Counted from the stretch's first letter, positions 28,192-43,946 are shown. The stretch is 64,000 nucleotides of DNA from Parcubacteria group bacterium (GCA_041674205.1 JBAYWF010000004.1:26721-90720), one strand, 5' to 3'. A program made the numbers and translations. The notes: a model not told the origin generated them from the letters alone.

Positions 28192-29736
28192 TCAGGCCGC
28201 GGATATTGCCGCACGTATGGCTCTTATTTCTCCCGTCTTCAGATCCAGTTCGACCTCATCCCCGTCCTGCAGAATCCGCGTAGCGTTTTTCGTACCGATG
28301 ATGGCCGGCAAGCCGAGTTCGCGTGAAACGATCGCCGCGTGGCACGCCAAGCCGCCCTCATCGGTGATTATCGCGATGGCTTTTTTCATAAGCGGCACAA
28401 ACTCGATCCTGGTCATGCTGGTCACCAAAATCCTGCCCGCTTCAAAATCACTTTTGTCCGGACGCAGGATTATGCTCACAATCCCTCTGATTTTTTCTTG
28501 GCCGCCCCGGCTGGCTACCACGCCCATCAATCCGCTTGCAGATTCGATCTTGCTTGCCAACCCGAATAAATCCCTGGCCTCATCGCCGAAAAAAATGTTC
28601 CGCTTGCCATGCTCGAATGCCAAGAATACGCCCGACTCCCTTTTTGCGATAATCAACGGATCGACTCGCACGTCCTTTTCCAGCAAATCAAACAATTCTT
28701 CCATAAAATACGCGGTGCAGGTGTGATAATCGATTTTTTTGCGTTCCGTGATTTCCCGCAGCATGGAATAGATGTAATAGAATTGCTTCATCATTCCCGA
28801 TTTCCTTTGATCAAACCACAAAATTGCCTTTTGGGAAAATTCAATATCCATCAAATCAACCTCTCTTAGGGCATAGCGCTTTTTAAGTTCATTTTTACTA
28901 GCATGGATATTTGAGAAATTATCTTCTATTTTAGCCAGTTCATTTTCCAGGTCGGCTTCGTTTTTTATTTTTAATTCATTTTTAACTTCATCCCTCAATG
29001 AATATCCATCTACACGCGTCGCCTCATAAAAATTCGTTTTAATCCAGAAAAAATCCCGTATATATTTATCGACTAGCGGTTGGACATTTTTATCTTCCCA
29101 CGCTTTAGCGAAATCATCATTCCCAGAACTATGGATTTTCCGGTTAACCGTCAGACATATTTCAAAAAAATTCTTTCGTTCCTGATTGAAAACCGCCATC
29201 TCATCCGGATGCGCCAACACGCTCACCGCTTCCCGCGCATCTTCATAGCTGATGCCATGGCGTTTTTGGAATCGCGGCACCACTTCCCAATTGACTACCT
29301 CCGCTTTGTCTTCGCCGGTAGCGGCACATTTCCACCACTCATAGGCCAGCTCGTTTATTTTCCTAAAATATCCAGCGAATTCAGCGTCTGGAATTCCCCC
29401 TTCCGCCCTTTCCAGATATTCCAACCCCAAGCGGTCGATTTCTAGAGCCAATTTTTGTTGGGCTTGGATTTTGTTCCGCATACCCTCCGGGTTTTCCAAA
29501 TAATCTTCGTAAAACTTTTTGGAAACCTTTTTGATATCGTCCCGTGAAATCAATTGGTAGAAAACGTCCGCCCCTTGGCCGAAATAGCAATGCACGTGAT
29601 CATAATCGACTCCGGTGATTTCCGCCGAATCCGAATAGGCCCGGAAAACCCAATCGGCCGCGTTGAAAGCCGCCCGGGCGCTTTGCACGTCGATTTCATT
29701 TTCCGCCAGATATTTTTTCAATTCTTGCGCGTCCAT
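28192..29736 (-). CDS. Phosphotransferase paralog 1: variable N-terminal domain (~400 aa) + C-terminal PEP-utilising-enzyme phosphohistidine swivel domain
   Basis: C-terminus GVVASRGG...[48 protein letters not shown] matches the PEP-utilisers mobile domain. The conserved His codon falls at about 28339-28341. No ATP-grasp or PEP-binding barrel. Confidence 0.7.
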
Positions 29737-33917: not shown

Positions 33918-34868
33918 TTATTTTGCTGATTCTTTAGAATTTTTCCATTCCTTATACTTGCCCACCAATGCCAGAAATTTATTTTTGTCGATAAAAACTT
34001 TGCTTTCCGCCGGTCGGCTGCCACCCTCGAACCTGACCGGTATTTTATCCGGCAGATCGTTCGGATTTTTGATATCCAAATAGATCGATTCGTTGGTATC
34101 GATAAAACCGCCAAAGTCCTCGTTTTCAAAATCGGAAATCGGTCCTTCCTGGCCATCCGCTCCCAGCATAACGCCCGCCTTCTTCAACAAGGCCTCCATG
34201 AACATGCCATGCGTAACAGTATTCAATACGGCATCCTTTTTAACATTGGAATCATCCCCACCCCGGTATCGCCTATCATATCTTCCCGCTATTTCAAATT
34301 CGTGATTCAATTGTTGCGCTAACCCCATAGCCATCCGGGTTATCACCTCATCGTTTTCTTCCCTTAGGATATATCTGAATCCGACCGCTTGGTTTTTGGC
34401 CCGGATCGGTGCGATTTTTTCTTGGTCGGGCAATTTCGTAAGGTCGACTTTCAATTTTCCATTTTCATCCCTTTCAGTCGACTCGCCTAATTCCCGCAGG
34501 GTTTCTTCATTGATCAAATCAGCAGCTTTCCCTAGCTGTTTTTTCAAATCCGGATTCAATATCCCATATTGGATATCCTCGACTTTGCGCGTAGCATATT
34601 GCTTCCCGGTCAATTCCGACTTGATGCCGCTTTTTTCAGAAATGAGATCGCCAGTAATAAAAGCTCGGTCGCTTTTTTCATCACTGGCATAGGCCTTCAG
34701 CACCTCGGCCTCTTCTCCGATTTGCCCGCCCTTCCCACTTGCGTTTTCAATGCCCTCGGGAGAAAGTTCACCTGAAGCCAGCCTTTCCGCGTGCCTTGTG
34801 ATCATAAAGACATATGTGGGTTCTTTTTCAAATGTTACTTCTTTAGGGCCGCCTTCCTTGAAACTCAT
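33918..34868 (-). CDS. Histidine-phosphatase-superfamily protein (phosphoglycerate-mutase-like branch)
   Basis: VFMITRHAERL gives the RHG-type catalytic motif (R-H-A-E). Confidence 0.5.
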   Translation of the reverse strand: MSFKEGGPKEVTFEKEPTYVFMITRHAERLASGELSPEGIENASGKGGQIGEEAEVLKAYASDEKSDRAFITGDLISEKSGIKSELTGKQYATRKVEDIQYGILNPDLKKQLGKAADLINEETLRELGESTERDENGKLKVDLTKLPDQEKIAPIRAKNQAVGFRYILREENDEVITRMAMGLAQQLNHEFEIAGRYDRRYRGGDDSNVKKDAVLNTVTHGMFMEALLKKAGVMLGADGQEGPISDFENEDFGGFIDTNESIYLDIKNPNDLPDKIPVRFEGGSRPAESKVFIDKNKFLALVGKYKEWKNSKESAK

Positions 34869-34902
34869 AAATTTATTCTTAAATATTTATGTTTTTATTA
34901 TA

Positions 34903-36381
34903 TCACGATTTATTCAATATTCTCACGATCCCCATATCCGCATCCACTTCCACCAAGTCCCCGTCATGCAAAATCTGCGTCGCAATTTTGGTGCCGATGA
35001 TGCAAGGGATTTTCAGCTCACGGGAAATTATCGCAGCATGCGAAGTTATACCACCCTCGTCAGTTATTATAGCTGAAGCTTTTTTCATAAGCGACACGAA
35101 TTCCGGCCGGGTCATGCCAGTTACCAATATTTCGTTTTTCAAAAAATAATTTCTTTGCGCCCGATAGCTATGTATAACTCGCACTCTGCCTTGCACCTTT
35201 CCAGGTGATCCAACACTCCCCTTAATAATATTTCCTCCATATTTTTCTAAGGATTGTTGTTGTAAATAATAATCATTGATCTGTTTTTTAACGTCTTCGT
35301 GCTTTCCGATATTTTCTATCATTTTACCACCCTTATCTATAAATACCGAATATTCAGGAAAACGCGCTTGTACTATGTGGCTTATGGAAGAAATATATTC
35401 AGATCCTTTCAAGACTTCATGAAAATGAGTATACGGAATATATTTTTCTCCTACAGCACACTGAGCGAATATTTTTTGCGCAAATCTATATGTAACAGTT
35501 GTAAAGCGAGCCATAGAATCCTTCCTTACATCTCTTAATTTCATAATTGCTTGTATATATTCAACGAGTTTTATTTCTTCCGAGGAAAGAGTCCTGATCC
35601 ACCGCGCATATTCTTGTCGCCTTTCTTTTTCAGCATCAATATCCCGCCTAAGGATATCGTCGATTTGGGCTAATGAAAAATCACCGAAATCTTTTTTTAA
35701 ATTTGACGCGACTTCTGACGCGGATTTGATATGGTCATAATGGGCTTCAAAAAACTGGCATTTTTCCCCTATTTTCTCCCAAGAACAACCTTCCTTTATC
35801 ATATTGATAAGTATATGTCTCCTTCTGATATCAAACGAATGGGAAACGGGCCATGTCGCATTCTCCCAAAGGGATCGCACCCTATCCGGATTTATATCGC
35901 TTTTCACTTGTTTGAGAAATCCCAGACACATCCGCTCATCAAATGCGATGGAAAAAAATAGCGCTGCGTTCATATCCCATACCGCGTCTCTTATGGCAAT
36001 CACATCGTCTTTGATTTCAGACTCCTGCTTCAACGCGATGTAATGATATGTGAGTTTTTCATAAATTTCCGATATCTTATCATCAAGCCTATGAAAAATT
36101 TTAAATCGTTGATCCAATATGTCCTGGCCTTTCCAATGTCTCAGAAAAATTTCCTCGGAATGCCGTTGCGCCTGCGAAAAATGATAGTAATAAATACCCT
36201 CTTTAGAATTCATCGTGACAACAAGCGGGAATGACAAATCATCATCATAATACTTTTTAAAGTATTTTCTAGTATTCCATCCGCTTGACTGGACAATCAT
36301 AGCGCCATTGTATAAGGCCGGAGAAATTTCCTCATTTCGTGACGCCCGCGTAAATAATTGTGCCACACCATATGTTTCCAT
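34903..36381 (-). CDS. Phosphotransferase paralog 4: variable N-domain + phosphohistidine swivel domain
   Basis: C-terminus GSVGSPGKVQGRVRVI...[72 protein letters not shown]. Confidence 0.7.
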   Translation of the reverse strand: METYGVAQLFTRASRNEEISPALYNGAMIVQSSGWNTRKYFKKYYDDDLSFPLVVTMNSKEGIYYYHFSQAQRHSEEIFLRHWKGQDILDQRFKIFHRLDDKISEIYEKLTYHYIALKQESEIKDDVIAIRDAVWDMNAALFFSIAFDERMCLGFLKQVKSDINPDRVRSLWENATWPVSHSFDIRRRHILINMIKEGCSWEKIGEKCQFFEAHYDHIKSASEVASNLKKDFGDFSLAQIDDILRRDIDAEKERRQEYARWIRTLSSEEIKLVEYIQAIMKLRDVRKDSMARFTTVTYRFAQKIFAQCAVGEKYIPYTHFHEVLKGSEYISSISHIVQARFPEYSVFIDKGGKMIENIGKHEDVKKQINDYYLQQQSLEKYGGNIIKGSVGSPGKVQGRVRVIHSYRAQRNYFLKNEILVTGMTRPEFVSLMKKASAIITDEGGITSHAAIISRELKIPCIIGTKIATQILHDGDLVEVDADMGIVRILNKS

Positions 36382-36394
36382 ATTGAATATGATA

Positions 36395-37882
36395 TCACGA
36401 ATTTATTTTTAATATTCGAACTGTCCCGCGATCCGCATCCACCTCCACCAAATCCCCGTCGTGCAAAATTTGCGTCGCGATTTTGGTGCCGATGATACAA
36501 GGTTTTTTCATTTCTCGAGCGACGATAGCCGCGTGGCAAGTGACACCGCCTTCGTCTGTCACAAAAGCAGAAGCTTTACGCATAGCCGGAAGATAACTAG
36601 GCTTGGTCATATGCGCGATCAAAATATCCCCTGCCTTCACTTTCATCAAATCTTGCTCGTTGTTTAAAACTTTTACTGCGCCCCTTGCGATCCCATGCGA
36701 GGCCACCACTCCCATAATTTCAGTTTTCACATCTCTAACCAAAGATTTCTTGCCAATTTCCCGCCCGATTATTTTCTCCGCTTCCGTGCCGACATGATAA
36801 TTCTCCTTGCCGTCACACATCCACATAAATGTTCCATCCCTATGGGATACTTCCCTAAAATCAAAATTTTTACCGCCCACCAAGTCCTTGTATTCAGAAA
36901 ATTTCATAAAATACCGCGCCTCTTTTGGAACATCAAATCTCCTAATCACCTCCTTGAATAAAATATTTATATACTGATGGGATCTAGTATATATGCCATC
37001 CCTATATTCCTTTAAATAAATAATTTTTCTCAATGCGGAAAATAAATCATGATGCCTCTTATCAATATTCAATTTATTTTCTATGTCTTTTATATTTTTC
37101 GCGATTTCTTTCTTTCCAGGAAGAGTGGACAATCCCTTTTCCGATAAATCCTTTAATCTCGGAATAAAATCCCCCGGCTCCATTATGGGCCCAAGAAATT
37201 GATAACCCAATGACTGCCAACCGAATTTCTCCGCATGCTTCTTTAATGCCAACGACGCTTTGGTTCCTGAAATAGATTCCCCCTTTCTGATCATTTTCAC
37301 GATCTTCCAAAGATTTTCATCACTTAATCTGGCCCAAGACTTTCCCGGATTGTAGGCAAGCTTAGAAAAATATTCTCCGAGTTTATTTTCTTCGCCCGCG
37401 TCTTTTAATTTTGATTTCAAATACGGGATTACTTCATCCTCAATGGCAAAGGTGGCGATTACCGGAATATATGTATATATGGCTAAATTTTCATAGGCTT
37501 TTTCAAAATCACTCAAATATTTCAAAAGTTCCTTATCACCTTTACTAGAAAAGTCGATTTTAGAAAATTTTTTGCTATACGCTATCAGGTTTCGGCCATT
37601 TTTAAAATGATATTTTTCCAGTCTGTCTAAAAAATTCGTTTCTTTTTTTATTTCTCTCAAGAAAAATTTGGCAAAATTATCCAAATCCTGTTGTTTCCAA
37701 TATATGGATATTTTATCGCCCTCCCATAAATAAATATGTCCGAGATAGGTTTTGGCAAATTTCTTAAATGCCGGATGGAAAGGATGCGCGCTATCCCGCA
37801 AGTTGCAATATGAAACCGCAATTCCCTCCCGCTCCGTCCAAAGCCACCATTTGGATTTATTTTTAGATCTGGTTTTCTCCAT
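36395..37882 (-). CDS. Phosphotransferase paralog 5: variable N-domain + phosphohistidine swivel domain
   Basis: C-terminus GVVASHGIARGAVKVL...ILIAHMTKPSYLPAMRKASAFVTDEGGVTCHAAIVAREMKKPCIIGTKIATQILHDGDLVEVDADRGTVRIL. Confidence 0.7.
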   Translation of the reverse strand: MEKTRSKNKSKWWLWTEREGIAVSYCNLRDSAHPFHPAFKKFAKTYLGHIYLWEGDKISIYWKQQDLDNFAKFFLREIKKETNFLDRLEKYHFKNGRNLIAYSKKFSKIDFSSKGDKELLKYLSDFEKAYENLAIYTYIPVIATFAIEDEVIPYLKSKLKDAGEENKLGEYFSKLAYNPGKSWARLSDENLWKIVKMIRKGESISGTKASLALKKHAEKFGWQSLGYQFLGPIMEPGDFIPRLKDLSEKGLSTLPGKKEIAKNIKDIENKLNIDKRHHDLFSALRKIIYLKEYRDGIYTRSHQYINILFKEVIRRFDVPKEARYFMKFSEYKDLVGGKNFDFREVSHRDGTFMWMCDGKENYHVGTEAEKIIGREIGKKSLVRDVKTEIMGVVASHGIARGAVKVLNNEQDLMKVKAGDILIAHMTKPSYLPAMRKASAFVTDEGGVTCHAAIVAREMKKPCIIGTKIATQILHDGDLVEVDADRGTVRILKINS

Positions 37883-37896
37883 AATTTATAAAATCT

Positions 37897-38991
37897 TTAT
37901 TCCTCGCTCGCTCTCTTTAAAATTTTAACCACCCCCTTATCCGCGTCCACTTCCACTTCATCACCCGTTTTGAATGAGAGCGTCGCGTTAACCGTATTTA
38001 CGATACAGGGGATATTAAGCTCCCGCGACACGACTGCCGCATGGGAAAGCATTCCTCCGGTATTCGTAACGATCGCTGCCGCTTTTTTACATAACAATAG
38101 GACCTCCGGGCTGGTAGTCTCCGCTATTAGAATATCTCCCTTTTTCATTATTTTATCAATCTCCATAATCTGCTTATGATTATCGAACATCGGAACCACT
38201 ACAGCTTTTCCCGAAACCATCCCCCTGCTCGCGCTAACGCCTTTAACAATTTTCCTATTCACCCTTTCAGCAAATCGATCAAAAATATTTTTGGCTTCTT
38301 GATATGGGAATACCGCCAGCTTTCCCTTATGGTTTGTAGCCGCATAACATTTTTCTCTTCGTTCATAATCTTTTGGCGGCATATGTCCGTCAAAAAGCCC
38401 TCTTATCTCATCGGTGTAAAGATACTCGGCTTTCACGTCGTATTTCCTGGAAAAATATTTATAAATATTTTCCAAGACACCGCCCCTGAAATAATAGTCG
38501 TTCATAATTTCCCGGACTTCGAATTTAAATCTACCAGCATAATCCAAGTTTTTCTTTATGACCTTATTATCGTTCTTTTGAGCCACGGCATATGCATATT
38601 CTTGGAAATAGGCTTCTAAAAATCCATATCTTTTCCATAATAATCCCATGAAGTTTCTTGCATCAATGAATTCTTCTTTGGTTAAATTTTCGGGAACTTT
38701 TTTAAAATCTTTAATTATCCCTGACTTCGCTTCTCGTATATATTCCTTATATTCCTCAATATATCCATTAAATTCTTCCTGATTTCCATATAGCTCCAAC
38801 CCTTGTTCCGCCCAATCTTTTTCATGTCGACGGCTTATATATGAATAAAATACCATATTTTGGTTCATGACAAGCATATCTTGTCCCAGTGGACCCTCCA
38901 GAAGAAATTCACTATGCATACATCCGATAAGCCCGTCTGTACGGAAATATTTAATGAAATCTTCCGGATTCAATTGGTTTGGGTTTATCAT
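37897..38991 (-). CDS. Phosphotransferase paralog 6 (short N-domain, ~260 aa) + phosphohistidine swivel domain
   Basis: C-terminus GVSASRGMVSGKAVVV...ILIAETTSPEVLLLCKKAAAIVTNTGGMLSHAAVVSRELNIPCIVN. Confidence 0.65.
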   Translation of the reverse strand: MINPNQLNPEDFIKYFRTDGLIGCMHSEFLLEGPLGQDMLVMNQNMVFYSYISRRHEKDWAEQGLELYGNQEEFNGYIEEYKEYIREAKSGIIKDFKKVPENLTKEEFIDARNFMGLLWKRYGFLEAYFQEYAYAVAQKNDNKVIKKNLDYAGRFKFEVREIMNDYYFRGGVLENIYKYFSRKYDVKAEYLYTDEIRGLFDGHMPPKDYERREKCYAATNHKGKLAVFPYQEAKNIFDRFAERVNRKIVKGVSASRGMVSGKAVVVPMFDNHKQIMEIDKIMKKGDILIAETTSPEVLLLCKKAAAIVTNTGGMLSHAAVVSRELNIPCIVNTVNATLSFKTGDEVEVDADKGVVKILKRASEE

Positions 38992-39005
38992 ATATTTATT
39001 TACAG

Positions 39006-39830
39006 TTAATCATTCAATTCCACTTTCTCGCCCCTTCTCGCTATGGCGATGCTATTTTCTGAGACGTCGATTTTTATAGCTTCACAATTCTTAATTTCAT
39101 GATCGCCAAAATATTCATTTAAAGCATAGGCTATATAATTTTCATGTCCGAATGCCATAACTTTTATATTTTTCCCAGACCCGCTCTCCTTGATTTTATC
39201 ATGACCAAACCTTATCAACCTTAACAAATTTTTAAAATTGACATCAAACGTATCTTTAGCTGATTTTATTTCAGGGAAAAATTTTTTTAATTCTTCCGAG
39301 TAGTGAAAAAAATTAGCCCCCCAATTCCCATAATTTTTATTTTCTACAATTTTTCGAGCTTCCTCCCATTTCTTCCTGGCTTCAGCTGGAACTTTTTCCC
39401 AGTCTACATCCACGGACCGTGTCGGCATAAAAAGATATTGGACAAGAACATTGTCTATGCGCAATGACAAGTTTTTTATCTTCCTTATTCTCCCCTCACT
39501 AACTTCGTCTGAATACGCGCTTCTTGAACGTTTAGGACATACTATTTCGAAGCCTTTTCTTTCAGCAACCTTCATATATATGCTGGCCGTATCCATCGCT
39601 CTCACTTGCCCGCTAGACACAAAGAATAATCCATCATCATCGGGGTTAAATTCCGATAATAATTTTTCTGCCTCTTGCTCCGCCAAAATAATTCCTTCTT
39701 TTGATAAATCATTCTTTTCTTGCTCGCTTTCCTCAATAGGGCCCTGAGGATTATCAGAATCTAATATTTTTTTATAACTCTTATATTCTGAAATGCTATG
39801 GCGCACACCGTAAATTTCACTTTTTTCCAT
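39006..39830 (-). CDS. Histidine-phosphatase-superfamily protein
   Basis: IYGVRHSISEY (RHG-type motif) and MAFGHENYI (second catalytic His region). Confidence 0.5.
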   Translation of the reverse strand: MEKSEIYGVRHSISEYKSYKKILDSDNPQGPIEESEQEKNDLSKEGIILAEQEAEKLLSEFNPDDDGLFFVSSGQVRAMDTASIYMKVAERKGFEIVCPKRSRSAYSDEVSEGRIRKIKNLSLRIDNVLVQYLFMPTRSVDVDWEKVPAEARKKWEEARKIVENKNYGNWGANFFHYSEELKKFFPEIKSAKDTFDVNFKNLLRLIRFGHDKIKESGSGKNIKVMAFGHENYIAYALNEYFGDHEIKNCEAIKIDVSENSIAIARRGEKVELND

Positions 39831-39834
39831 AAAT

Positions 39835-40047
39835 TTATTTGTCTTCCGATTTTTTAATTATCCTCACAATCCCCTTATCCGCATCCACTTCCACCAGATC
39901 CCCGTCACGCAAAACTTGGGTGGCGATTTTGGTGCCGACGATACAAGGGATTTTGAATTCCCGCGCCAGCATCGAGGCGTGGCAAAGCATTCCGTCCTCA
40001 TCGGTCACGATCGCTTTTACTTTTTTCTTAAAATATAAATGGGCCAA
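39835..40047 (-). pseudogene. Orphan 3-prime fragment of a phosphohistidine-swivel-domain gene (C-terminal ~60 residues only)
   Basis: Encodes ...KAIVTDEDGMLCHASMLAREFKIPCIVGTKIATQVLRDGDLVEVDADKGIVRII behind a short non-homologous leader. Overlaps the 3-prime end of the methyltransferase paralog at 40017-40838 by about 30 nt. Confidence 0.6.
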
Positions 40048-40838
40048 TATCTGGGATCGAAGTATTTATCGGTTATGTATTTAACGTCTTCAATCAGATA
40101 ATATTTATTAAAAATATTTTCCAAATTGTCCCTTAGCGGCAATCTGATTTTCAGGCTGCTCGGTTTAATAAATCCAAGCATCGTCTTAAGTTCCGAATCA
40201 TCAATAATCCGTTTTCCGCGCATATCGCGCAACTTCGATAATATTCCGGACGGCGTATAGGATCCTTTTTTCCGCCCTATTGAAAGCGCCAGGTCCGGGT
40301 AAGCCATCATAAAAAGCGTTTTTTTGCCCGTCTTGATTCGCAGTTTCCTGTATCTTTCAAACCCATCAGCCGGATTGACTTCTTTGCGTACCGGACGTAT
40401 TACCGCGGTAGTCGCGAATATCCCGCCCGGCTTCAAATTGTCGGCAATATTTTTTACAAAAAAGCTTTGTTTATTTATCGGGATCATATTGATAACGTTA
40501 TGGCCCATTATCAAATCAAATCCACGCGCATCATCCAGCTCAAGCCAATCAGACTCAATGAATAATTCTTTTCCATCCCTTTTCATCAAAATCCTCAGCG
40601 CCTCATACACCTCCGAATTCACATCACAACAAATCGGCGTTATTTTATGCTTCAAAAGCAAATCACGGAATTCCGGCGTCGACCCCAAAATTAAAATCCT
40701 CGGCTTCTTATTACCTGCAAGAACCTTTCTGATGATTTTTTCGTATATAGCCATTTCCAACCCTGGCCTGACGGGCGCGGCATAATTTTTCCAATCTTTT
40801 GCCAATTGTTTGTTCCAAGGAAGTTTTTTTTCAGTCAT
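40017..40838 (-). CDS. Methyltransferase-fold paralog 7 (same family as the 8.6-14.1 kb array)
   Basis: VRPGLEMAIY, ILILGSTPEFRDL, ICCDVNSEV, FDLIMGH, LKPGGIFATTAV. Confidence 0.5.
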   Translation of the reverse strand: MTEKKLPWNKQLAKDWKNYAAPVRPGLEMAIYEKIIRKVLAGNKKPRILILGSTPEFRDLLLKHKITPICCDVNSEVYEALRILMKRDGKELFIESDWLELDDARGFDLIMGHNVINMIPINKQSFFVKNIADNLKPGGIFATTAVIRPVRKEVNPADGFERYRKLRIKTGKKTLFMMAYPDLALSIGRKKGSYTPSGILSKLRDMRGKRIIDDSELKTMLGFIKPSSLKIRLPLRDNLENIFNKYYLIEDVKYITDKYFDPRYWPIYILRKK

Positions 40839-40857
40839 ATCTATATATAACTAATTA

Positions 40858-40900
40858 TTTCGCGCCCACCTCCGCCAGATCCCCATTCTGCAAAAAATCG
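40858..40900 (-). repeat. Remnant of the conserved 3-prime terminus of a swivel-domain gene (...LQNGDLAEVGAK*), immediately downstream of the GGCT-like gene
   Basis: cgcgcccacctccgccagatccccattctgcaaaaaatcgc parallels the 3-prime ends of paralogs 4/5 (cgcatccacctccaccaaatccccgtcgtgcaaaatttgcg). Confidence 0.5.
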
Positions 40901-40903
40901 CAT

Positions 40904-41446
40904 TCAATCAATCTGGTGCTTCCTCCTATATTCTTCATAATCTCTTGCCGCGACTTTCAAAATAGCATCTTTCGGGACTAAATAATCTTCATAATCCCCA
41001 TTTTCAATCACCCTATCCGCCGGCATATCCGGCGATAATGACCCGTGCGTGATAATATTGACGATTTTTCCTTCTGAATCCATCGCAATGGCTTTGATAT
41101 CTTCCTGCATACCATATTCCAGCAATTCCCAATCCCTAACCAATCCATATTCTTCTTCTGTCAGTTTCCAAATCGTACCATAAGTGACGGCGTTAACTTT
41201 TGGCCTGATAATATATAACTCAAAATTATCATCAAAAGCCTTGGAAACGATTTCGCGCGGAGAAAGCCTGGATGGCGCCGTCCCAATTATTTCTCCCGGT
41301 ATATCATCGATTTTTTGGACACACAGCTCAAAGCCCAGTAATTTTCCCTTAACGCCTTCGATTTTTTCACGGCCAACCATAGCAGACATCATCTCCAAAT
41401 CGCGATTAGTGCCATAGCCGAAATAATCCAATAGTTGCTTCTTCAT
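40904..41446 (-). CDS. Gamma-glutamyl cyclotransferase-like (GGCT/AIG2/BtrG fold) protein
   Basis: N-terminal YFGYGTNRD matches the YFAYGSN signature of the GGCT fold. Confidence 0.5.
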   Translation of the reverse strand: MKKQLLDYFGYGTNRDLEMMSAMVGREKIEGVKGKLLGFELCVQKIDDIPGEIIGTAPSRLSPREIVSKAFDDNFELYIIRPKVNAVTYGTIWKLTEEEYGLVRDWELLEYGMQEDIKAIAMDSEGKIVNIITHGSLSPDMPADRVIENGDYEDYLVPKDAILKVAARDYEEYRRKHQID

Positions 41447-41465
41447 AGCGTTTGTTTTGATTTAA

Positions 41466-42344
41466 TTAATTCAAACTTAATTCTTTGCCTTGTATTTCAC
41501 AGGATGCCTTGCCGCGCTTATCGATTCCGATGGAAATGCCAGCGCCTTGATCGACTGGCAAATATTTTTTCATGTCTATCCCGGCAATATGCCTTTTGAT
41601 AAAAGGGCTTATGGAATCATAATGGCTTACCGCCCAGATGATTAATCGCCTGTCAGGATTAGCCTTGTGATATTCATCAGCTATCTGCGCCTGTAATGAA
41701 AGCGCGTAATTAACCCGGTCAGCTATTCCATCCGGACCTTCCGCACCCATCTCTACACGAGTCTCCCTTTCCGAATCTGATTCATACGCATCCCAAAATT
41801 CCACCCCGGTTCCATATTTATCTATCAAAAATTGCGTAAATTCTGGTGACTCTTCCAATATCATCAAGTCCCTCAGTTCTGAAACTTCAATAGCTCCGCC
41901 GTTTTGAGCGGCTGAATTATTCAACAATTGTCCATCCGCAATAAAAAATTCCGACATAGATTCCCTGAGCCCCGTCATTACCTGACCGGCAGTTTCCACC
42001 GCCCTCTGATGCTTATTTTTTATTCCATCGGGAGTGGACAATGTCGAATCGCTGGCAATCACCATCACATCGATCATTTTTCTCTCTTCCTCATTTAAAC
42101 CGCCAAATATCTTATTGAAAAATTCCTTGGCGTTCACTCGCACTTGTTCTGCCGCGCCAACTTCAAGCGCACCCATATCTGGCGAGTCTTTGCGCCTATC
42201 GTCTTTGGCGTTGCGCTGCAAAACGATTGTCGAGCCGCCGATTTCAGGCATTTTTGGATGGAGATCTGCCGATGTGATTCTTTCTATTTCAACCTTCCCG
42301 CCTTCGTTATGAAAAATTTGATTCGGCCATTCATTCATAAACAA
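41466..42344 (-). CDS. Hypothetical protein, possibly a degenerate histidine-phosphatase-like fold
   Basis: RLIIWAVSHYDSISP resembles the second-His region of histidine phosphatases, but the RHG motif is not evident (IVLQRNAKD). Confidence 0.3.
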   Translation of the reverse strand: MFMNEWPNQIFHNEGGKVEIERITSADLHPKMPEIGGSTIVLQRNAKDDRRKDSPDMGALEVGAAEQVRVNAKEFFNKIFGGLNEEERKMIDVMVIASDSTLSTPDGIKNKHQRAVETAGQVMTGLRESMSEFFIADGQLLNNSAAQNGGAIEVSELRDLMILEESPEFTQFLIDKYGTGVEFWDAYESDSERETRVEMGAEGPDGIADRVNYALSLQAQIADEYHKANPDRRLIIWAVSHYDSISPFIKRHIAGIDMKKYLPVDQGAGISIGIDKRGKASCEIQGKELSLN

Positions 42345-42353
42345 TTTAATTTT

Positions 42354-42893
42354 TTATTTATTAATATCCTTAGCCAGATAATCCGCCGCCTCTTCTATGG
42401 AATCAAAAATAGGCACTCCTTTCTCTTTCCATTTTGAAATCCAATTCCTGTGTCCCATAACCTGCCCTAGCCGATCAGAAGTCGCCCCGCCATCATAGTT
42501 CGTTTCTTCTCTCTTTTTGATAAATGATTTATGCTTCTCCCATTCGGGCACGACTACCGCATCCGGCCTAAGCCAATTATTAGAAGCGCCCATAATCCAC
42601 AAACCTTTTTCTATGGCCCGCTTTGTCACTTCATCACTTCGCCTATCGATTTCATCCATCACATCTTCGCTTTCCAGCCACCATGCCCTTTTCGGATGAG
42701 CGCCTGATTTTTCCCATAATTTATCGCCATCGATCCAATTTTTGTCCTTTTGCCTATCTACAAAATATGTTTTACCGGCACCGGATGGAGCAACGATAAA
42801 AAGCCCTGACTTGTGCCTGACGAATTCTTTTAAAAACAGCTCTATCGCCTCAGCAATCTGAGAATCATCCAATGGCTCCAGATCATATACCAT
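42354..42893 (-). CDS. P-loop kinase/NTPase (small-molecule or nucleotide kinase-like). The ORF track extends it to 42974 through an upstream swivel-domain remnant
   Basis: Walker A LFIVAPSGAGKTYFV. Probable start MVYDLEPLDD at 42893. The upstream in-frame codons (MQDGSLVEVDAGVVI) are homologous to swivel-domain C-termini. Confidence 0.5.
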   Translation of the reverse strand: MVYDLEPLDDSQIAEAIELFLKEFVRHKSGLFIVAPSGAGKTYFVDRQKDKNWIDGDKLWEKSGAHPKRAWWLESEDVMDEIDRRSDEVTKRAIEKGLWIMGASNNWLRPDAVVVPEWEKHKSFIKKREETNYDGGATSDRLGQVMGHRNWISKWKEKGVPIFDSIEEAADYLAKDINK

Positions 42894-42924
42894 ATTTTTT
42901 AATATTAAAATGTTACGCTTTTTT

Positions 42925-42975
42925 AATATTATCACAACTCCCGCATCCACTTCCACTAGACTCCCATCCTGCAAA
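42925..42975 (-). repeat. Remnant of the conserved 3-prime terminus of a swivel-domain gene (QDGSLVEVDAGVVI), in frame with the P-loop kinase ORF
   Basis: caactcccgcatccacttccactagactcccatcctgcaaaac parallels the paralog 3-prime ends. Confidence 0.5.
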
Positions 42976-42998
42976 ACCTAAATGAATAATCCTAATCC

Positions 42999-43946
42999 CT
43001 AATTTTTCAAAGTCGTAATCGGCCGGCTTTGGACGATGTGAAATTTTCCACTTTCATAAGCCCACTCGATATCGCACGGAAAACCGTAATGTTTTTCGAT
43101 ACCCAAGATTATTTCCGACAATTCCAAAATTTGTTTTTCCGCCAGGACTTGCGCGGACGCTTGCGGCTCGGGAATATTTTTCCATTCGTTGCCGCCGTTT
43201 TGCGCCCGATAGATCCCGCGTTCCTGCGTGGAAACGTTGATGTCTAAAATATTCCTCGGATTTTTTTCCACCACATAACTGTCCGGGGTGATTTGGCCGG
43301 ACACGATCGCTTCGCCGAGGCCATAGCCGGCTTCGATGATGAGTTGATTGCGATCTTCCGTCACCGGGTGCACCGAAAAAGCGATGCCGGAAATCTCGCT
43401 TTCCACCATTTTTTGCACCACCACCGCCACGGAAATTTTTTGTTTATGCAGGTTTTTTTCAAAACGGTAAAAAATCGCGCGCGGTGTGAATAGCGACGCC
43501 CAACAATGCTGGACTTTTTCCAATAAATTATCCTTGGTCGTGTTCAAATAGGAATCCAATTGCCCCGCCCAAGCGTTTTCCGCGCCGTCCTCCGCCGTCG
43601 CACTGGACCGGACAGCCACGAATTCAGCATTCAATTCGGTAAATCTTTTTTTAATTTCTTGCGCGATATCTTCCGGCATCTGCGCCTTTTTAATCAAAGT
43701 CTGGATCTTTTCCGAAGCCTCTTCGACCGTGTGCATCGCATTGTGATCGACAGTATGTAAAACCGCATCCACCTCGACGCCCAAATCGGTTTCCGCTAGA
43801 AATTTCTCGAAAGTCCCGGCCAGAACCACGAAGCCAGGCGGCACCGGGATGCCGGCCTGCGTCATCTCGCCGAGAGACGCTCCTTTGCCTCCGGCGATAT
43901 CGGTATCGCTTTTTGATAAATTTTGAAAAATTCTAATCAGTTCCAT
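42999..43946 (-). CDS. Stand-alone PEP-synthase/pyruvate-phosphate-dikinase N-terminal ATP-grasp (nucleotide-binding) domain protein, ~315 aa
   Basis: IAGGKGASLGEMTQAGIPVPPGFVV near the N-terminus. VAVRSSATAEDGAENAWAGQLDSYLN, AVVVQKMVESEISGIAF and C-terminal CDIEWAYE...HIVQSRPITT match the PPDK_N / rifampin-phosphotransferase ATP-binding domain. No swivel or substrate domain follows. Confidence 0.75.
   Translation of the reverse strand: MELIRIFQNLSKSDTDIAGGKGASLGEMTQAGIPVPPGFVVLAGTFEKFLAETDLGVEVDAVLHTVDHNAMHTVEEASEKIQTLIKKAQMPEDIAQEIKKRFTELNAEFVAVRSSATAEDGAENAWAGQLDSYLNTTKDNLLEKVQHCWASLFTPRAIFYRFEKNLHKQKISVAVVVQKMVESEISGIAFSVHPVTEDRNQLIIEAGYGLGEAIVSGQITPDSYVVEKNPRNILDINVSTQERGIYRAQNGGNEWKNIPEPQASAQVLAEKQILELSEIILGIEKHYGFPCDIEWAYESGKFHIVQSRPITTLKN

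Follow-up and report, generated by a model that had tools for sequence, protein, structure and literature searches.

Small-molecule dikinases of the HpeHI, CreHI and PpsAB type are built from two proteins, an ATP-grasp subunit and a partner in which an RPH-type substrate-binding domain is joined to a swivel domain with the histidine motif T/SxxGGxxxH, and in these systems the swivel histidine takes phosphate from ATP on the grasp subunit and passes it to a substrate held on the other domain (PMC12167813). Here we consider a locus in a Parcubacteria group bacterium, contained in a stretch of 64,000 nucleotides (GCA_041674205.1 JBAYWF010000004.1:26721-90720; hereafter the window, from whose first letter positions are counted), where six tandem genes, P1 to P6, and one short orphan fragment encode swivel domains, and where three of these copies, P4, P5 and the orphan, share a short 3′ coding segment at the DNA level. 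We consider it very probable that this segment records short-tract gene conversion and homologous recombination anchored on the most conserved coding part of the family. In the literature searched, we found no description of 3′-block recombination in the known dikinase members.

The six genes and the one stump are best explained as substrate-binding and phosphohistidine ‘swivel’ subunits of two-component small-molecule dikinases. All six paralogs carry the PF00391 ‘swivel’ (PEP-utilizer) domain at the C-terminus (Pfam, E = 2e-22 to 3e-27), with the T/SxxGGxxxH motif in forms such as TDEGGITSH and TDEGGVTCH, and a substrate-binding domain of the RPH type lies N-terminal to it. The N-terminal regions of these six proteins (280-430 aa) gave no Pfam match, and among the paralogs the N-domains (approximately 400 aa) are about 20% identical in protein or without detectable similarity, in agreement with the low amino-acid identity reported for them in an initial annotation of this DNA. 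In the source metagenome-assembled genome (MAG), on a contig 318 kb long, P4 and P5 are annotated merely as ‘PEP-utilizing enzyme’; the predicted activity of the paralogs is ATP-dependent phosphorylation of small molecules through a phosphohistidine.

A protein-guided codon alignment of the swivel domains locates the shared tract in a 72-nt block of 24 codons, PCIIGTKIATQILHDGDLVEVDAD, which we call block 2 and which ends 10-13 codons (30-40 nt) upstream of the stop codon. The 41 codons directly upstream, in the same swivel domain, are block 1. The genes concerned, and the copies of block 2 delimited in them by codon alignment, synonymous tests and nhmmer, are as follows.

34903 to 36381, minus strand: P4, 492 aa, divergent N-domain and C-terminal swivel domain (PF00391, E = 2e-24)
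36395 to 37882, minus strand: P5, 495 aa, rifampin-phosphotransferase-like substrate-binding domain and swivel domain
39835 to 40047, minus strand: orphan open reading frame (ORF), 70 aa, PF00391 profile positions 21-72 of 72 (Pfam)
34936 to 35007, minus strand: block 2 of P4
36431 to 36502, minus strand: block 2 of P5
39877 to 39948, minus strand: block 2 of the orphan

In block 2, P4 and P5 are identical at 66 of 72 nt (92%), all six differences being synonymous third-position transitions (C/T or A/G), and the corresponding identities are 89% for P5 and the orphan and 86% for P4 and the orphan, against 54-60% among the same three copies in block 1. The 3′ similarity and sharp upstream drop described in the initial annotation are thus real, although its term ‘near-identical’ overstates a similarity that leaves 6-10 differences per 72 nt. 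Where residues are identical, the same codon is used in block 2 at 18 of 24 positions (P4/P5), 17 of 21 (P5/orphan) and 14 of 21 (P4/orphan), against approximately 8-10 expected from the codon usage of the window (z = 3.6, 4.0 and 2.6, respectively), whereas in block 1 same-codon use is at expectation (z from -0.7 to 0.5). Synonymous sites are correspondingly less diverged at the 3′ end than upstream, with Nei-Gojobori synonymous divergence (dS) in block 2 of 0.52 (P4/P5), 0.37 (P5/orphan) and 0.60 (P4/orphan), and block 1 saturated (proportion of synonymous differences, pS, at least 0.78). The outcome that the initial annotation had named as refuting its reading, equal divergence of synonymous sites at the 3′ end and elsewhere, is thus contradicted. 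A gene-conversion test of the GENECONV kind, as the initial annotation had proposed, was carried out by permutation of maximal segments on polymorphic sites; it singled out only these three pairs (p <= 0.0002 each) and placed the maximal segment at codons 38-70 of the swivel core. The maximal-segment score was used in place of the longest-run (Sawyer) test, which is underpowered where mismatches are evenly spread and by which P4/P5 is not significant.

A simpler account would have no recombination at all: the 3′ block would be the most constrained part of the gene, and identical residues together with codon bias would make the DNA alike. It is helped by the fact that the block-2 peptide, PC[IV]IGTKIATQ[IV]L.DGDLVEVDA, is near the family consensus in many genomes, and by most of the shared block-2 codons being those the genome prefers. 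However, the block 1 residues TDEGGxTxHAAI are equally invariant without any synonymous excess, and two rare codons, CCT and GGG, are common to P4, P5 and the orphan. Moreover, 378 cross-genome pairs with at least 21 of 24 identical block-2 residues, taken as an empirical null, average 75.7 +/- 4.4% nucleotide identity and not 86-92%; P4/P5 and P5/orphan exceed the 99th percentile of this distribution (87.8%), and P4/orphan exceeds the 95th. The homogenisation of block 2 is therefore greater than amino-acid conservation produces.

The same question was put to the family at large by aligning 189 swivel domains from 86 loci (denoted below by L numbers) to one profile and comparing same-codon use with a locus-specific expectation. 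Pairs from different loci (n = 14,842) fit the null in both blocks (0.332 observed vs 0.324 expected in block 1, 0.365 vs 0.364 in block 2), so that the null is calibrated and synonymous constraint across the family as a whole is absent, and we judge an explanation by constraint and codon bias to be very improbable. Among 331 pairs of paralogs within loci, by comparison, ten have z > 3 in block 2 only, and these come from six independent loci (the window, L016, L001, L048, L021 and L029); one pair has z > 3 in block 1 only. Homogenised tracts bounded on both sides are present in L016 (75 nt, one mismatch), L048 (66 nt, no mismatch), L021 (48 nt, no mismatch) and L001 (about 100 nt, five mismatches). 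In the last of these the genes A03 and A08 are 96% identical in block 2, while P5 and its ortholog A08 are saturated at synonymous sites; similarly, P4 has 83% identity in block 2 to its L007 ortholog vs 92% to P5. We read these comparisons as repeated short-tract gene conversion confined to the most conserved 3′ segment, the window probably holding one of the older instances. Both the synonymous tests and this recurrence favour gene conversion or homologous recombination over simple old duplication, as the initial annotation had suggested. GC-biased gene conversion as a general force was rejected, mean GC content at third codon positions (GC3) over 178 domains being 0.428 in block 2 and 0.435 in block 1. 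L001, L002 and L003 were discarded as a case of strain variation, being the same sequence with one mismatch.

We propose the following mechanism. The last 25 or so codons before the C-terminal tail are almost invariant in protein across the family, while the N-domains have diverged beyond easy recognition; this near-invariance keeps the DNA of the segment similar enough for recombination. In P4, P5 and the parent of the orphan, block 2 was homogenised by short-tract, non-reciprocal homologous recombination, the tract having a limit at either end. Ordinary homologous recombination that makes use of an island of DNA similarity imposed by the protein is the best description of the process, and we infer that any behaviour of the block as a handle is a by-product of strong protein constraint and not a selected function.

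Rearrangements in close relatives bear directly on this proposal. The methyltransferase encoded beside the orphan has homologs 87-89% identical on two contigs, L092 (GCA_030679995.1, a Moranbacteria MAG) and L093, both of which are syntenic with the window. By blastn, window 26387-52928 and L092:5-20840 are collinear at 81-92% nucleotide identity, with a pooled dS of 0.62. The order in L092 is PPDK_N, methyltransferase, S506 (a swivel gene of 506 aa), the orthologs of a 316-aa gene, P3, HAD, a 213-aa gene, P2 and P1, with ribosomal protein L9 and then CTP synthase downstream of the P1 ortholog. Where L092 has S506 alone, flanked by the methyltransferase and the 316-aa gene, the corresponding interval of the window contains the orphan, a 274-aa gene, P6, P5 and P4.

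40017 to 40838, minus strand: methyltransferase, class I
37897 to 38991, minus strand: P6, 364 aa, swivel block 2 not homogenised with those of P4 and P5
34936 to 40020, minus strand: segment without a collinear L092 counterpart (orphan, 274-aa gene, P6, P5 and the body of P4 up to block 2)
34866 to 34932, minus strand: tail of P4 and spacer to the ATG of the 316-aa gene, identical to L092 at 67 of 67 nt, where orthology resumes

The N-domain of S506 is 38% identical to that of P5 and has no match to that of P4, and the identity of S506 to P4 per 30 nt runs 30, 53, 60, 63, 66, 83, 70, 90, 100, 100 and 86%, the gene turning P4-like from the first tail codons past block 2. The swivel of S506 also shares the states of the orphan (REF, CIV, QVL, DK) at most sites that separate the orphan from P4. 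In L093, positions 2393-2597 hold an in-frame chimera of about 41 S506 codons followed by P5 from approximately codon 342; its start is 87% identical to S506 over the first 46 residues compared, and its P5 part is identical to window P5 at 78 of 81 nt (window 36772-36852), which means that S506 and P5 coexisted in the common ancestor. All three arrangements would follow most simply from an ancestor with the order methyltransferase-S506-274aa-P6-P5-P4-316aa and three separate deletions afterwards. In L092, recombination between the block and tail of S506 and those of P4 took out some 4.9 kb, with the 274-aa gene, P6, P5 and the body of P4, and produced an in-frame hybrid gene; in L093, an illegitimate join would have brought S506 to P5; and in the window, the loss of S506 codons 1 to about 445, at the AAAAAG microhomology by the stop codon of the methyltransferase, would have given the orphan.

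Related genomes thus differ in structure with junctions at the conserved segment, both where S506 meets the P4 tail and at a pair of block-2 remnants, R1 and R2, that have a single counterpart, R0, in the relatives (see below). This is direct evidence that at least one rearrangement junction in a close relative, L092, lies at the block and that a second is consistent with it. The comparison of strains that the initial annotation had called for therefore yields cassette loss, with the L092 join in or just past block 2.

The timing of conversion can be judged from S506, whose block 2 matches that of the orphan at 62, of P4 at 60 and of P5 at 63 of 72 nt (83-88%). Being equidistant from the three, it indicates that they were already alike before the lineages split and that little later conversion is needed, and the conversion among P4, P5 and the orphan's parent is probably about as old as the L092 split, or older. 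The margin is small, at 62-66 of 72 among the three window copies vs 60-63 to L092. Recent import of the segment from the orphan to P4 had been considered on account of its lower GC content (sub-array 0.35-0.43 vs flanks 0.43-0.51, in the window and L092 alike), but is unlikely, L093 carrying P5 sequence and the N-terminal body of S506 being equally low in GC.

Some further observations concern the same alignments. The 67 identical positions at window 34866-34932 stand in a background of about 86% identity, and a TG-extended, -10-like TATAAT overlaps the P4 stop codon (promoter-like site 34926-34897, minus strand). The dS between window and L092 varies sevenfold by gene, from 0.18 to 1.24 (methyltransferase 0.18, P3 0.28, PPDK_N 0.95, 213-aa gene 1.08, P2 1.24), and this unevenness among neighbours suggests mosaic recombination between lineages along the locus. 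The P1 block 2 (window 28226-28308 vs L092:18900-19000) is identical at 53 of 72 nt, with amino-acid changes, for a whole-gene dS of 0.65, and no donor for it is evident among the other paralogs.

The orphan carries changes at otherwise invariant residues upstream (TDEDG, HASM) and an intact block 2, which fits recombination or recent origin better than selection on the protein. Most likely a seventh paralog, the ortholog of S506, once stood here and the orphan is the stump that a microhomology deletion left of it, with the junction that follows.

40017 to 40031, minus strand: deletion junction; alignment with L092 is collinear through ...TTAAGAAAAAA and breaks off at the position of the S506 ATG in L092

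The A-rich microhomology AAAAAG at this junction forms an A_AAA_AAG heptamer that overlaps the methyltransferase stop codon. A_AAA_AAG is a dnaX-type slippery sequence, and here it stands in the methyltransferase zero frame just before the stop, so that a -1 shift yields a continuous ORF into the orphan. A programmed -1 frameshift joining methyltransferase and orphan was nevertheless rejected: all 17 methyltransferase homologs stand alone (16 of 263-286 aa, one of 330 aa), none has a precomputed PF00391 match, and the fusion would still lack swivel profile positions 1-28. The heptamer coincides with the deletion junction relative to L092 and was judged a by-product of it.

Further copies of block 2, beyond those listed in the initial annotation, were found by repeat search, translation and nhmmer as two remnants of its 3′ half, which bracket a segment absent from L092 and L093.

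42941 to 42978, minus strand: R1, remnant of the 3′ half of block 2 (VLQDGSLVEVDAG...), nhmmer E = 8e-5
40858 to 40896, minus strand: R2, remnant of the 3′ half of block 2 (FLQNGDLAEVGAK*)
40860 to 43005, minus strand: 2.1-kb segment with R1, ORFs of 206, 292 and 180 aa, and R2

R1 begins 22 nt past the PPDK_N stop codon and R2 begins 7 nt past the stop of the 180-aa gene. In the spacer between PPDK_N and methyltransferase, L092 and L093 have the single remnant R0, the right half of which is collinear with R2; the right half of R2 is orthologous to R0. A segment flanked by repeats in one genome and a single repeat in others are the products expected of recombination between repeats, by loop-out deletion or by integration of a circle, and the 2.1-kb segment appears to have been gained or lost through recombination between R1 and R2. 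R1 is also in frame with the downstream 206-aa ORF (42354-42974), whose listed TTG start falls inside R1, and a similar 3′ swivel remnant at L035:1469-1631 (profile positions 35-88) is in frame with a downstream ORF of 341 aa; both cases could be chance or could represent an N-terminal extension.

Since the sequences come from metagenome assemblies, in which repeats are notorious for misassembly, and the rearrangement junctions coincide with repeats, we weighed the possibility that assemblers had collapsed or chimerised the repeated block and so created false identity and false junctions. The window copies differ from one another at 6-10 positions, however, which rules out collapse; at 48-100 nt the tracts would fit within a typical read; and the left junctions have no shared repeat. 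In addition, a second, different public assembly reproduces the region without mismatch (16,948 of 16,948 nt, all junctions spanned), and L092 and L093, which come from different samples, agree on the alternative arrangement. An artefact of assembly is, in our estimation, extremely improbable.

Several points do weigh against our reading and limit what may be claimed for it. Each synonymous test has just 16-24 informative codons. P4 and P5 (92%) are only modestly closer to each other than to the S506 block (83-88%), so that conversion after the split was little or undemonstrable. The orphan-like states of S506 are the family consensus as well and are weakly diagnostic, and the L092 junction is localised only to about 100 nt, from block 2 to the first tail codons. 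Two of the four rearrangement junction pairs among the three relatives are plain microhomology deletions; the origin of the orphan is itself best explained by such an unrelated deletion and not by use of a handle. A crossover within the R1 and R2 repeats is inferred from their arrangement, not proven. What the comparisons demonstrate is recombination at the block with loss or gain of cassettes, and a selected handle or reciprocal exchange would go beyond the data. Finally, genes in L016, L029, L047, L013 and L007 have the block-2 type of P4, P5 and the orphan, at 83-89% identity (z = 3.5-4.4).

This last point means that purely intragenomic conversion is insufficient as an explanation. The type occurs in 12 genes of six loci, in genomes that are otherwise saturated at synonymous sites: block 1 of these genes is saturated except in the P4 ortholog of L007 (block 1 z = 3.0), and the PPDK_N genes of L016 and L029 are saturated too, that of L047 being marginally above expectation (z = 2.4). 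In L016, a locus of 34% GC, three genes of otherwise native appearance have a block-2 GC3 of 0.67-0.75, against 0.34-0.37 in their own block 1 and an average of 0.28 in loci of similar GC content.

L016:10127-10198: first block-2 copy
L016:11603-11674: second block-2 copy
L016:12647-12718: third block-2 copy

This looks like horizontal import of a short tract of about 75 nt, which may then have spread among the paralogs. More generally, block 2 might be a recombination anchor that spreads horizontally between distant lineages of the candidate phyla radiation (CPR) and then among the paralogs of each genome, a suggestion that we hold to be doubtful. If true, the anchor would link the arrays of different organisms into a common pool from which a shared ATP-grasp dikinase could gain, lose or swap its substrate-binding cassettes in frame. 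A phage vector was sought with a degenerate block-2 pattern and rejected, there being no match in viral contigs.

Sharing of one type by otherwise saturated genomes could also mean that block 2 is a functional element at the nucleotide level, such as an RNA or DNA hairpin, a regulatory target or a recombinase recognition site, and is under selection as such. An imperfect hairpin is possible in block 2 (CACCAAA/TTTGGTG, TGCATC/GATGCG), and what survives in R1, R2 and fragments in L047 and L035 is in each case the 3′ part of the domain, with the 3′ half of block 2. A general synonymous constraint across genomes was not found, however, and L001, L021, L048 and L054 encode the same residues with quite different codons; the differences between copies are ordinary third-position transitions; and none of the 17 array and neighbouring proteins scanned against Pfam is a recombinase. 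The hairpin itself was rejected, having neither unusual stability (folding energies z from -2.0 to +0.5) nor covariation, since pairing reflects column composition (0.664 vs 0.647 permuted) and the potential is largely set by the conserved residues. Selection for a nucleotide-level element thus seems unlikely to us.

Alternatively, the array could be a dedicated cassette-exchange system, to be likened to integrons, shufflons or orphan toxin cassettes, in which the 3′ block has been selected as the site of swapping. The presence of rearrangement junctions at block 2, of arrays of at least 19 cassettes that share the block, and of a block type common to several genomes and compositionally foreign in L016 would all suit such a system. 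Yet the scan of those 17 proteins found no integrase, invertase or transposase family; the events took segments away or added them, without reciprocal swapping; microhomology deletions account for half of the junctions; and no more than 10 of the 331 paralog pairs are homogenised. All of the observations are predicted by RecA-type recombination acting where tandem paralogs are most alike, and a dedicated system is in our view quite improbable. Conversion and recombination anchored on a protein-constrained segment remain the reading that we prefer.

Every gene from about 28 to 44 kb of the window is on the minus strand, and a HAD hydrolase, the class I methyltransferase and several proteins without assignment are interspersed among the swivel genes.

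28192 to 29736, minus strand: P1, 514 aa, PF00391
29738 to 31159, minus strand: P2, 473 aa, PF00391
32400 to 33899, minus strand: P3, 499 aa, PF00391
42999 to 43946, minus strand: stand-alone ATP-grasp subunit, PPDK_N (PF01326, E = 3e-99)

Presumably this one ATP-grasp protein serves all of the swivel paralogs, and a single shared partner of this kind would explain why the C-terminal swivel is nearly invariant while the substrate-binding domains diverge freely. Unassigned proteins of 316, 274 and 292 aa (33918-34868, 39006-39830 and 41466-42344) are interleaved with the swivel genes and gave no Pfam hits. By eye, an RHAE motif in the 316-aa protein is reminiscent of histidine phosphatases, and phosphatases beside kinases would be suggestive for function; the 274-aa protein has a 34% identical homolog that adjoins swivel genes in L029.

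Elsewhere, CPR bacteria and DPANN archaea have swivel homologs in abundance, many of these proteins being fused to PPDK_N in proteins of approximately 810 aa, and fused forms of this length are among the orthologs of P4. In about 34 of the 86 loci, swivel genes have a stand-alone PPDK_N for a neighbour, and tandem swivel arrays are common, running to at least 19 consecutive genes in L001 and to 10 and 8 in L028 and L083, respectively. A profile search of genome contigs with the N-domain of P5 retrieved three loci only. In L001:1-21419 (GCA_964647565.1 contig CAZYIM010000003.1) the array genes mostly have 4-nt start/stop overlaps, and the record label Methanosarcinales looks doubtful given 37% GC and the content of the contig. 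A 319-aa gene followed by a 67-aa swivel orphan at L001:17504-18626 was rejected as a parallel to our orphan, as it reflects an assembly gap (an N run, read as XXXX in translation). Complete stand-alone swivel ORFs of 81-125 aa without N-domain occur at L008:3093-3338 and L008:5083-5421 and in L015, L030, L039 and L064, adjoining PPDK_N and unassigned genes and, in L008, interspersed with PemK/MazE toxin-antitoxin genes; these would be a further splitting step of the dikinase.

CPR bacteria and DPANN archaea have tiny genomes, of which some devote 10-30 kb to arrays of dikinase subunits, and we found no descriptions of such arrays in the literature searched. If our reading is true, one ATP-grasp protein probably serves many partners, a compact means to phosphorylate many small molecules, whose substrates could be antibiotics, phenolics or host metabolites. 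A short conserved coding block at which joins stay in frame would be the means by which the arrays are remodelled, a testable example of protein constraint creating a recombination hotspot that shapes the content of a gene family. A practical warning also follows, in that the 3′ end misleads domain-level trees of swivel proteins.

It remains to place the locus among known systems. With HpeHI, CreHI, the phenylphosphate synthase PpsAB and fused RPH it shares the same domain logic, and fused homologs of about 810 aa exist; unlike HpeHI, CreHI and PpsAB, one ATP-grasp gene stands here beside six (elsewhere at least 19) divergent tandem substrate-binding/swivel genes, and unlike the known dikinases the hosts are CPR and DPANN genomes. 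On the sequence comparisons made, the recombination that we propose would be a variation on known phenomena, in a gene family and in organisms for which we found no earlier description in the literature searched.

Diversity-generating retroelements place near-identical repeats at the 3′ ends of target genes and are common in CPR and DPANN genomes. Here, likewise, a near-identical stretch of about 70-100 nt recurs near the 3′ end of several genes. Unlike in those elements, the mismatches are third-position C/T and A/G transitions and are not adenine-specific, and the domain is a swivel and not a C-type lectin fold; the scan of the 17 proteins found no reverse transcriptase, and mutagenesis of this type is excluded by the mismatch spectrum.

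The toxin tips of Rhs and CdiA with their orphan cassettes, pilE/pilS and the type I hsdS shufflons recombine at a conserved coding boundary. As in these systems, a short conserved coding segment beside a variable module offers homology for swapping or deleting modules, and, as with the Rhs/CdiA orphans, truncated copies with the conserved segment lie nearby. The polarity is reversed, however, with the variable module 5′ and the conserved block 3′, and the orphan, R1 and R2, unlike the Rhs/CdiA orphans, have the conserved 3′ end only, without a variable module. What is observed, moreover, is erosion or gain and not the switching of shufflon-type systems, and programmed variation is not evident.

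Concerted evolution by gene conversion is known among bacterial paralogs, for example the tuf genes and the rRNA operons. The swivel paralogs resemble these in that non-reciprocal recombination would keep segments of paralogs alike while orthologs elsewhere diverge, and differ from them in that the tract is short, about 50-100 nt, and is a single 3′ coding block, the remaining 1.4 kb or so of each gene being unalignable as DNA.

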